This document shows, piece after piece, positions 30,001 to 33,000 of a stretch of DNA of 49,241 nt. The stretch lies in IMG/VR virus record IMGVR_UViG_2721755711_000006; one strand, given 5' to 3'. Each line of letters opens with the position of its first letter. The first letter of the stretch is position 1. A program made the position numbers. Source of the DNA: a virus (lineage: Duplodnaviria; Heunggongvirae; Uroviricota; Caudoviricetes).

Positions 30001-33000
30001 TTAAATATGTGTATACATCTGTATCAGAAATATACAACGTATATCATCACTGAATTAAAAATCTTTCGTTATTTCTCTGACCGTCTGATTAAAACGTTCC
30101 TCTTCCAGTTCCACGCCAATCGCCCTGCGTCCCAGCGACAGTGCCGCTTTTATTGTCGACCCCGACCCCATAAAAAAATCTGCGACCAAATCGCCAGGAC
30201 GGCTGCTGGCAGTAATTATCTGACGCAACATATCCGCCGGTTTTTCACAGGGATGTTTACCCGGATAATACTGCACGGGCTTGTGCGTCCAGACATCCGT
30301 ATAAGGAACAACAGCCGATACGGAAAAATAACGCCGCAGTGATTTGTATTCCTCCAGCAGGCTGGCATATTGCCGGTTCAGTTCGCTGTATGTGCTGACC
30401 AGCTGGTGGTGTGGCTGCTCCAGTTCACCGCGCTGGTGTTTTTCTGCCGCCACACGTGCAAACAGCGCCTGCAGTTTACTGTAATCGGCCTCATTCGGTA
30501 ACTGCCACTGACTGGTACCAAACCAGTGCGAAGCCATGTTTTTCTTTCCGGTGGCTTCAGCTATCTGTTTTGACGTTATCCCCAGTGATTCACGCGCATC
30601 ACGAAAGTAAGCAATCAGCGGGGCCATTACGTGCTGCTTAAGCTCGCGCCCTTTTGCTGCATAACCGTCACTTTTGAGCTGGTATGACCCCTGATAATGT
30701 TCAGCAAACAGAATGCGCTCTGTTGCCGGGAAATATGCCCGTAAACTTTCCTTATTGCACCCGTTCCAGCGTCCGGACGGCTTCGCCCAGATAATGTGGT
30801 TCAACACATTAAAACGTTCACGCATCATGAGTTCGGTGTCAGATGCCAGTCGATGACCACAGAACAGGTAAAGACTTCCGGCAGGCTTCAGTACCCGCCA
30901 GAACTGCGCCAGACACTGGTCCAGCCATTGCAGGTAATCATCATCGCCCTTCCACTGGTTATCCCAGCCCTCAGGCTTCACTTTAAAGTATGGCGGGTCT
31001 GTGACTATCAGATCGACGGAGTTTTCCGGTAAGGTCCGGATAAATTCCAGGCAATCAGCGTTGATTAACTCACAACTGGATATTTTTACAGTATTGGCCA
31101 TAGATCAGTAAGCACTTCTCTGATAGGCTCATACCGCTTTTGCGCAAAGCAGATGGGCCTGAGGTTTGCTTGTGATCCCAACGCATGAGCAGATGGCTGG
31201 CAGGTGCCGCTAACACCCACCAGCCGCCCATTACCACAAATTAAAAAGCCTTCACTGCGGAAGGCGTCTGTAACAACCGAACTGATAATCTGCCAGACCC
31301 GCCATAACAAGCTGGGTCAGTATTAACTGGCAGCGTTCGCGTGAAAGGTAAGTATTCTGCGCAATTTCCCCGACGGTCGCCGGTTCGGTGACGCTTAATT
31401 CATTAAATACCACTCTGGCAGTTTCGGTCATATCCTGCTGTTTTAGCATGCCTTTTTCCCTTTCCCGGTTAACGTGACATACCAATAACTCTTGTCGAAA
31501 AAGCCAGCAAGCTGAAAGACCGGTATTCGCAACCACCAGCGCATTTAACGTCCCGTGTCGTTTTTCGGGCACAAAAAACCCGCCAAACGGCGGGTTTAAG
31601 GAAGGAGTCGAAGCAACCACTCTTAACATCATAATTGAATTTTTACGTACGTAAACCACAAATACGCCACTCAAATGTTAATGCCATATAACAAAACAAA
31701 ACATACGAATAACACATATTACATCAAATACATCATTGTTATTTTTCAATGAAAAATGAGTAAATAATGTATTTCATTAATTAAATTCCGCATTACACAA
31801 AAATATCGACAAATTACACCAACGCGCATAAATGAGATCTTGATCATATTATCAATCACTAAATTAAACTTGCCTCTTGAAATAACCACATTGATTAGAT
31901 GAATATTTATCGCGCAGTGACATCATTTTTTAAAAATAGTTCAAAAAAAAGGGTTCGTGATGAAAAAATTAACGGTGGCAATTTCTGCTGTGGCTGCATC
32001 AGTACTGATGGCGATGTCTGCTCAGGCAGCAGAGATTTATAATAAAGACAGCAACAAGTTGGATCTGTACGGAAAAGTTAATGCTAAGCACTACTTCTCC
32101 TCTAACGATGCAAATGATGGCGACACAACTTATGCTCGTCTGGGTTTCAAAGGCGAAACTCAGATCAACGATCAACTGACTGGTTTCGGTCAGTGGGAAT
32201 ATGAATTCAAAGGAAACCGTACTGAAGAACAGGGAGCAGCCAAAGATAAAACCCGTCTTGCATTTGCAGGGCTTAAATTCGGTGACTACGGCTCCGTCGA
32301 TTACGGTCGTAACTACGGTGTAGCATACGATATCGGTGCATGGACTGACGTTCTGCCAGAATTCGGTGGAGATACCTGGACCCAAACAGATGTATTCATG
32401 ACTGGTCGCACCACTGGTGTTGCAACTTATCGTAACAACGACTTCTTTGGTCTGGTTGATGGTCTGAATTTTGCTGCACAGTACCAGGGTAAGAATAATC
32501 ATGATCGTAGTAGCTTAGATAACTACACCAAAGGCAATGGCGATGGTTTTGGTTTCTCTGCGACCTATGAATACGAAGGTTTCGGCATTGGTGCAACGTA
32601 TGCGAAATCTGATCGTACCGACACTCAAGTCAAATTGGGTAAACTTCTCCCAGGAGTATTTGCTTCCGGCGAAAATGCAGAAGTCTGGGCTGCAGGTCTG
32701 AAATACGACGCAAACAACGTTTATCTGGCAACAACCTATTCAGAAACCCAGAATATGACTAAATTCGCAGATTACTTTGTGGCTAATAAAGCACAAAACT
32801 TCGAAGCTGTTGCACAATATCAGTTCGATTTCGGTCTGCGTCCGTCTGTTGCTTATCTGCAATCAAAAGGTAAAGATCTTGGCATTTTTGGTGACCAAGA
32901 TTTAGTCAAATATGTTGATGTTGGCGCAACTTATTATTTCAACAAAAATATGTCTACATTCGTTGATTACAAAATCAACCTGCTTGACAAAAATGACTTT

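Follow-up and report, generated by a model that had tools for sequence, protein, structure and literature searches.

What does a lambdoid prophage gain from a DNA methyltransferase that has no restriction partner, and how might it hold such a gene in check? The question is raised by the 49,241-nucleotide IMG/VR virus record IMGVR_UViG_2721755711_000006 (Caudoviricetes), the whole of which we call the window and which contains a lambdoid prophage of E. coli whose genes include Q and those for lysis, terminase and tail. On its minus strand, marked (-) below, lie an intact gene for a 348-amino-acid (aa) beta-class N6-adenine methyltransferase of the M.EcoGII family (30055-31101(-)) and, upstream of it, a gene for a 65-aa stand-alone winged-helix protein (31252-31449(-)). 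M.EcoGII is a widely used reagent, and its natural biology, that is its silencing, its timing and its benefit to the phage, is essentially unstudied. We consider it probable that the window gene is an M.EcoGII orthologue carried as Q-dependent late cargo, which serves anti-restriction and is controlled by a structured leader. A reproducible architecture, consisting of late cargo behind two terminators, a folded leader whose start codon lacks a Shine-Dalgarno (SD) sequence, and a winged-helix companion, is found in the window and in more than 200 related loci.

The methylase and its place in the late operon

The methylase open reading frame (ORF) matches Pfam N6_N4_Mtase (PF01555) at 3.5e-44 and 151.8 bits, against a cut-off of 26.7, and carries DPPY at residues 35-38 and FMGSGS at residues 310-315, the order of motif IV before motif I that defines the beta class; an earlier note on this DNA, which had described a DPPY methylase with its catalytic motifs in this order, was correct in that respect. 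A Rossmann core with DPPY and FxGxG is common to the window methylase and to the 8URK/9C3U methyltransferase, M.RsrI, CcrM and M.MboIIA, whereas solved beta-class methylases align to it in two blocks only (residues 8-114 and 281-335), leaving the central ~165 residues (115-280) unaligned. The large insertion suspected in the earlier note is real, as the Pfam match covers residues 29-340 on a 221-position model, but the extra length is the family's ordinary central target-recognition domain with its linkers and not an unusual insert. In M.EcoGII this domain is a four-helix bundle of residues 160-237, and a family-specific central domain and linker of this kind go with non-specific binding (PMC11551740).

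The window methylase is 86% identical to M.EcoGII over 345 aa, target-recognition domain included, and 88% identical to the reconstructed ancestor Anc291, both sequences having been machine-read, with a few reading errors, from the PDF supplement of the SUPREM paper. M.EcoGII and M.EcoGI of E. coli O104:H4 C227-11 (Murray et al. 2018, PMC5778455) belong to the same family, M.EcoGII having 349 aa against 348 here, and the prophage setting is alike, with close relatives in phages 1720a-02 and phiP27 that have the same neighbours. Phage 1720a-02, which Murray et al. named as the carrier of a very similar enzyme (PMC5778455), encodes a methylase 86% identical to that of the window and 93% identical to M.EcoGII. 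M.EcoGII methylates adenine in any sequence context, is deleterious if constitutively expressed and is silent in the lysogen, and its methylation blocked all adenine-methylation-sensitive restriction enzymes tested, twelve 6-bp and six 4-bp cutters (PMC5778455); Anc291 was assayed as a DNA and RNA methylase and was experimentally non-specific (SUPREM paper). About 14% of residues differ between M.EcoGII and the window enzyme; by its sequence, the gene is an orthologue of M.EcoGII, which methylates adenine N6 in DNA without specificity (and RNA weakly) and belongs to lambdoid prophages of enterobacteria.

The gene is an orphan, as had been proposed. Neighbouring ORFs within ~3 kb all have other functions or are small and contain no nuclease domain, defence-system libraries matched only through generic methylase models, and related loci whose gene tables were read show no nuclease near the methylase. 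Anti-restriction, which the earlier note gave as the usual role of orphan methylases in lambdoid late regions, is the likeliest role here and gains support from the 86% identity to an enzyme that blocks restriction.

Where does the gene sit in the phage programme? The minus-strand order is early genes, DnaB, Q, a porin gene on the opposite strand, the winged-helix/methylase pair, tRNA-Gly, and the lysis, terminase, head and tail genes. The pair thus occupies the cargo slot of the late operon, between Q with its putative late promoter and terminator, pR'-tR', and the lysis genes, on the same strand. The antiterminator Q (33244-33627(-); PHROG 79) matches PF06530 at 5.5e-52. Downstream of it, the candidate pR' (TTTACG-16-TATGAT, 31628-31655(-)) is the sole promoter-like site on the minus strand from Q to the methylase, bar one inside the Q ORF (33430-33403), and the same scan found none between tR' and the methylase. 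The tR'-like intrinsic terminator (AAACCCGCC-GTTT-GGCGGGTTTTTT, 31570-31597(-)), a strong hairpin with six T residues just after the candidate promoter, matches terminator stems of Rfam leader models and is kept in nearly all loci; the predicted short transcript from pR' to tR' is only ~50 nucleotides (nt). The 101-bp pR'-tR' block has a counterpart of ~80% identity in 258 phages; Stx1a and Stx2a phages are among them, as is phage 434, where it sits between nmpC and holin S, the late-promoter position. In the Stx/lambda-like pR'-tR' module that is the source of the small RNA StxS (Sy et al. 2020, PMC7547250), a promoter-like site and strong terminator 3' of Q are followed by cargo and lysis genes, as here, and in lysogens pR' fires constitutively, its transcription ending at tR' (PMC7547250). 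The cargo differs, being the methylase module and tRNA-Gly in the window and tRNAs and stx in Stx phages.

A second terminator-like element follows the small gene. At 31238-31265(-), adjoining the leader, the hairpin GCCTTC-CGCAGT-GAAGGC is followed by the T-run TTTTTAATTT and holds the TGA stop of the small ORF (31254-31252) in its loop, so that the earlier description of a 65-aa ORF ending inside its own terminator 150 bp before the methylase proved accurate. Other species keep this hairpin through compensatory changes (GCCTCC/GGGGGC, GCTGCC/GGCAG, CTCCGC/GCGGAG). Between 29300 and 33700 we counted 12 terminator-like sites, against 4.4 +/- 1.9 in shuffled sequences. Besides tR' and the small-ORF hairpin, two terminator-like hairpins with T-runs lie at 29480-29463(-) and 29325-29310(-), between tRNA-Gly and the first holin gene, so that a late transcript would have to cross at least four terminators before the lysis genes. 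In other species the same downstream module stands behind different Q families (PF06530 and lambda-type PF03589) and different promoter blocks. The two intrinsic terminators and the lack of an internal promoter-like site suggest that the methylase depends on Q, and from this anatomy we infer a late-operon cargo module that is kept off in the lysogen by tR' and the small-ORF terminator.

The structured leader of the methylase

What fills the gap between the two genes? The earlier note gave its length correctly, exactly 150 nt (31102-31251), and missed that it is a conserved structured element. Across 22 loci, the window and 21 from other species, mean pairwise nucleotide identity is 0.83 in the spacer, compared with 0.84 at methylase codon positions 1 and 2 and 0.48 at third positions. 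The leader proper spans 31102-31237(-), and in essentially every instance 130-132 nt separate the start of the leader motif from the methylase ATG. A covariance model matches the window at 31090-31240 with 138 bits and comprises a long hairpin, P1 (31185-31231), a long-range helix, P2, in which 31167-31178 pairs with the 13 nt just 5' of the ATG (31102-31114), and inner helices P4/P3 (31126-31159); the RNAalifold consensus gave P1 and P2, and the full P1-P4 scheme is a manual assignment encoded in the model. In 76 distinct leaders, 95% of cells form pairs, whereas slid controls reach 28-46%; compensatory changes occur at 12 of 40 pairs, against 1-7 in those controls, and none of 500 shuffles reached the observed values. 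At two positions, 68-71 of the 76 sequences retain a G-U pair; the opposite strand would have a mismatch there, which assigns the fold to the sense RNA.

There is no SD sequence before the methylase ATG, and a divergent lineage that lacks the leader has a normal AAGGA instead. Positions -13 to -1 have a predicted probability of being unpaired of 0.18 in the window; a shuffled leader gives 0.43 +/- 0.14. With moderate confidence we propose that the leader acts in translation or processing of the mRNA of a toxic enzyme. A search of the spacer (31102-31251) against Rfam release 15 gave no match at gathering thresholds and none at E <= 10, and a known RNA family or riboswitch was rejected on that basis. 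A leader peptide was likewise rejected: an ATG in the conserved motif opens a reading frame beginning MGGWWVL, which runs for 3-53 codons in varying frame relative to the methylase, and changes in it are offset within the stem, so that no ORF is conserved. A degenerate pattern scan of metagenome contigs for distant leaders returned the same family only. Publications on M.EcoGII treat the enzyme alone, the winged-helix gene, the terminators and the leader not being described in the searchable literature, and no paper in that literature prints the signature sequences of the leader or the winged-helix protein; as far as it shows, both are undescribed.

These observations lead us to the following model. 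In the lysogen, RNA polymerase starting at pR' would stop at tR', and read-through would be halted at the second terminator, keeping the toxic enzyme off. Upon induction, Q-modified polymerase would pass both terminators, and the enzyme would methylate most adenines of the replicating phage DNA, so that adenine-sensitive restriction of Types I, II and III in the next host would spare the progeny. The leader, by pairing the 13 nt before a start codon without SD, would probably set a low or processed level of translation. Because the gene lies downstream of Q and pR'-tR', in the slot of stx, a late gene that hypermethylates progeny DNA is the most likely reading, rather than an epigenetic switch.

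Several points weigh against this model. The hexamers of pR' match the consensus at only 9 of 12 positions, and its start is a candidate one. The T-run of the small-ORF hairpin is weaker in many relatives (CTTTCTG), so the second lock may leak. Non-specific activity is attributed to the window methylase by its 86-88% identity to its assayed relatives. The covariation of the leader is drawn from close relatives (83% identical) with few events, in a test alignment fitted to the model, and the accessibility effect is modest (~1.8 standard deviations), with the AUG itself predicted to be fairly open. Finally, a conserved block upstream of the small ORF, described below, could be a promoter, in which case the small gene would be autonomous and expressed in the lysogen, and the model leaves that unexplained.

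The winged-helix companion and rival readings

What is the small protein for? Its ORF shows a dN/dS of 0.028 against E. albertii and a median of 0.15 over 137 pairs, synonymous sites being saturated in most comparisons; such purifying selection marks a real gene. AlphaFold predicts a confident canonical winged helix (pLDDT 89.9) with no second domain for dimerisation or effector binding. Pfam winged helix-turn-helix models remain below threshold (TrmB 18.0 bits against 25.6; MarR_2 14.7 against 27), NCBIfam gave no match, PHROG 331 carries no assigned function, and no named family could be given, although some copies are labelled 'TrmB family transcriptional regulator' by NCBI. A profile search of 1.84 billion representatives returned only 83 relatives, all small and stand-alone, with neither remote homologues nor fusions. 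The family has an invariant core, C-(Q/E)-L-(I/L)-L-T-Q, and is mostly acidic or neutral (pI mostly 4.5-6, and 4.5-6.5 for 19 of the 28 members sampled); no basic residue of helix 3 is conserved across these 28, and the window protein lacks CxxC pairs and a zinc-finger motif. The helix-turn-helix that the earlier note considered possible is borne out by the predicted fold, whereas DNA binding, given the charge of the family and of helix 3, is not a safe inference and is weakly supported. Cys40, at the start of helix 3, is kept in ~25 of 28 aligned members, and a second cysteine (C59 in the window protein) is usually present at a varying position in the wing or C-terminus; they may mark an interface or a site for a metal or redox chemistry.

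The small protein is a co-inherited companion of the methylase. Its gene stands upstream of an M.EcoGII-like methylase gene in 23 of 24 loci at species level, and likewise in most of the more than 200 viral and metagenomic loci, and the pair corresponds to L23/L24 of the Stx2e phage phiP27. Phage 1720a-02 carries the same small ORF (63 of 63 residues identical) and the same leader. Both genes are still paired in the divergent lineage, at ~40% identity for the small protein and 61% for the methylase. Here (loci L270-L272, e.g. L272:2780-3330) a lambda-type Q, a terminator, the upstream block, the winged-helix gene and a Chi-containing hairpin with six T residues are followed by a 73-nt spacer with a normal SD and no leader, and then by a 338-aa methylase.

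Upstream of the small ORF, alignments reveal a two-box block (31474-31511(-)), in which CTTGCTG and AGAGTTATYKGTATGTCAC are separated by a variable spacer of fixed length. It is conserved at this position across genera, is present in the leader-less lineage and is absent where the small ORF is absent, and is possibly a promoter or operator of that ORF. As a sigma-70 promoter its best reading, TTGCTG-17-TATYKG, gives only ~6 of 12 matches and lacks the -7 T; sigma-32, sigma-E and sigma-54 patterns, compared by eye as consensus sequences, give no good fit; and a hairpin was rejected, as putative partner positions vary without compensation.

One alternative starts from this tight co-inheritance, which holds across genera and Q types, and has the small protein acting on a protein or on modified DNA: as an inhibitor or antitoxin of the methylase, as a targeting factor, or as a shield or decoy against Type IV systems (Mrr/DpnI-like) that depend on N6-methyladenine (m6A). 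With its own upstream block and terminator, the gene resembles a moron, which might be active in lysogens or give an excess of product, and its acidic composition is atypical of a repressor. Winged-helix domains are known m6A readers, winged-helix-fused nucleases cut M.EcoGII-modified DNA (PMC11037411), and expression of M.EcoGII required an mrr-deleted host (PMC5778455). Any such interaction is putative, and some phages do without the protein; we judge this alternative unlikely.

A second alternative concerns the spacer, whose conservation could reflect DNA rather than RNA, with Chi and a conserved 'linker' promoting modular recombination among lambdoid phages. The 5' arm of P1 is an exact Chi octamer (GCTGGTGG, 31217-31224(-)) in 64 of the 76 leaders; in the lineage without a leader, a Chi of like orientation is retained in the corresponding spacer. 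The window as a whole holds 13 Chi sites against 2.06 +/- 1.29 expected, a roughly six-fold excess; they span 28964-43845 (e.g. 31533-31540(-)), all within the early/Q/lysis arm, and 9 of the 13 lie on the late-sense strand. The 21 related loci together have 134 sense and 40 antisense sites, where 2.6 per strand are expected, an orientation that, by analogy with lambda, would be active for RecBCD entering from the lysis-proximal cos end. Mosaic identities also flank the spacer, as in 1720a-02, where the small protein is 100% and the methylase 86% identical to that of the window. Chi is thus a DNA-level constraint on 8 of ~130 conserved nucleotides and leaves the rest unexplained; its variants are compensated on the opposite arm of P1, the conserved G-U pairs and the compensatory changes in P2, P3 and P4 point to RNA, and the distance to the ATG is fixed. 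As an account of the whole spacer, recombination is improbable.

In phage Mu, a toxic DNA adenine-modification gene, mom, is likewise expressed late, with a small gene, com, directly upstream and its start held in an RNA helix; Com is a zinc finger whose gene overlaps mom, and transcription of mom depends on Dam, OxyR and C. Could the winged-helix protein likewise bind the leader RNA and mask or unmask the start region of the methylase, as a dedicated translational switch? The window resembles Mu in having a small gene, here with a nucleic-acid-binding fold, directly 5' of a probably late modification gene, a covariation-supported helix at the start region (positions -13 to -2), for which only modest occlusion and a fairly open AUG are predicted, and a start codon without SD. 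In contrast to Com, the small protein is a winged helix without a zinc-finger motif, acidic or neutral and devoid of conserved basic residues, its ORF lies 150 nt and a terminator away from the methylase, and control appears to run through Q antitermination. Moreover, about ten loci have the leader and methylase without the small gene, and the divergent lineage shows the reverse, with a normal SD. Since each occurs without the other, leader and small gene are separable. This speaks against a simple arrangement of the com-mom kind, with the protein binding the leader, and makes a role at the level of protein or of m6A-DNA the more likely option. We give the Mu-like switch slightly less credence than the recombinational reading of the spacer.

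Two kinds of variant locus were seen besides. Four viral contigs (L046, L091, L117 and L138) keep the small ORF and the P1 hairpin, followed by AT-rich DNA 3' of P1 and no methylase, which looks like a recombination or deletion boundary within the leader. In four further loci (L044, L085, L113 and L128) an unrelated ORF of 69-132 aa (280-455 nt inspected), ending in LVDTIGN or LVETITD and with its own hairpin, replaces the winged-helix gene 5' of the leader and methylase.

A heritable epigenetic switch of regulator and methylase in the lysogen, as the earlier note had entertained, or a remnant of a C-protein-controlled Type II restriction-modification system, recalls the small helix-turn-helix-class gene that stands beside the methylase gene in such systems and the TrmB label of some copies, but is very improbable, given that homologous enzymes lack sequence specificity, are toxic and are off in lysogens (PMC5778455), that neither the window nor related loci whose gene tables were read have a nuclease nearby, that the protein has a winged-helix rather than the Xre-type fold of C proteins and falls below the TrmB threshold, that no C-box was identified and a terminator separates the genes, and that the gene, placed after pR'-tR' and a further terminator in the late operon, is unlikely to be expressed during lysogeny.

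Neighbouring features and relevance for Stx phages

The prophage is integrated at ssrA (tmRNA gene at 698-1060), and its flank is 99.7% identical to E. coli chromosomes. On one side of the methylase lie tRNA-Gly(TCC) (29764-29836(-)), in the slot that holds tRNAs and stx in Stx phages, and the lysis cassette of two holins and a GH108 endolysin (28081-29285(-)), which continues the late operon; on the other side are the porin, Q, an 85-aa ORF and DnaB (33881-35281). The porin, an NmpC/OmpC-type moron (31957-33063(+); Pfam Porin_1 at 8e-152), is oriented opposite to the late genes and separates Q from the candidate pR'. A porin stands in this place in DLP12 and phage 434 as well; elsewhere the slot holds a GIY-YIG nuclease-family gene (phiP27) or a gene for a 160-aa hypothetical protein (E. 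coli RM11911). Further away, Rfam matches to C4 antisense RNA (37980-38067(-), 82.9 bits) and to the Hfq-binding isrK RNA (38092-38168(-), 57.9 bits) lie side by side within the span of a 731-aa ORF (37362-39557), and an IS009 RNA match (3336-3534(-), 206.9 bits) lies at the tail-fibre end of the prophage.

How far does the module reach? Of 5426 complete E. coli genomes, 2325 contain DNA similar to its 2-kb region, as do many Stx2a, Stx2c and Stx2d phages. In phiP27 and in E. coli RM11911 the layout runs from Q to the small ORF, methylase, tRNAs, stx and holins, and the module stands immediately 5' of stx in phiP27 (Stx2e) and 1720a-02 (Stx2). Where it lies upstream of stx in this way, the toxin transcript therefore includes the terminators and leader of the module.

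We tentatively suggest, as an idea with a minor though real chance of being right, that the parts described here form an undescribed three-part safety and timing module: a terminator abutting the leader in every locus, a ~130-nt structured RNA, confined to Enterobacterales prophages, that embeds a start codon without SD and controls translation or processing, and a co-inherited acidic winged-helix protein whose specific target is the methylase or the m6A that it makes, with a part as inhibitor or antitoxin, targeting factor or anti-Type-IV shield. If, instead, the leader is mere insulation and the small protein an unrelated moron, the window simply holds another copy of a known prophage methylase. 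The enzyme belongs to a well-characterised kind, and further work is best directed at the leader RNA and at the winged-helix protein. Should the three-part module be real, it would represent a new kind of control of a toxic DNA-modification enzyme, similar in logic to com-mom of phage Mu and built from different parts.

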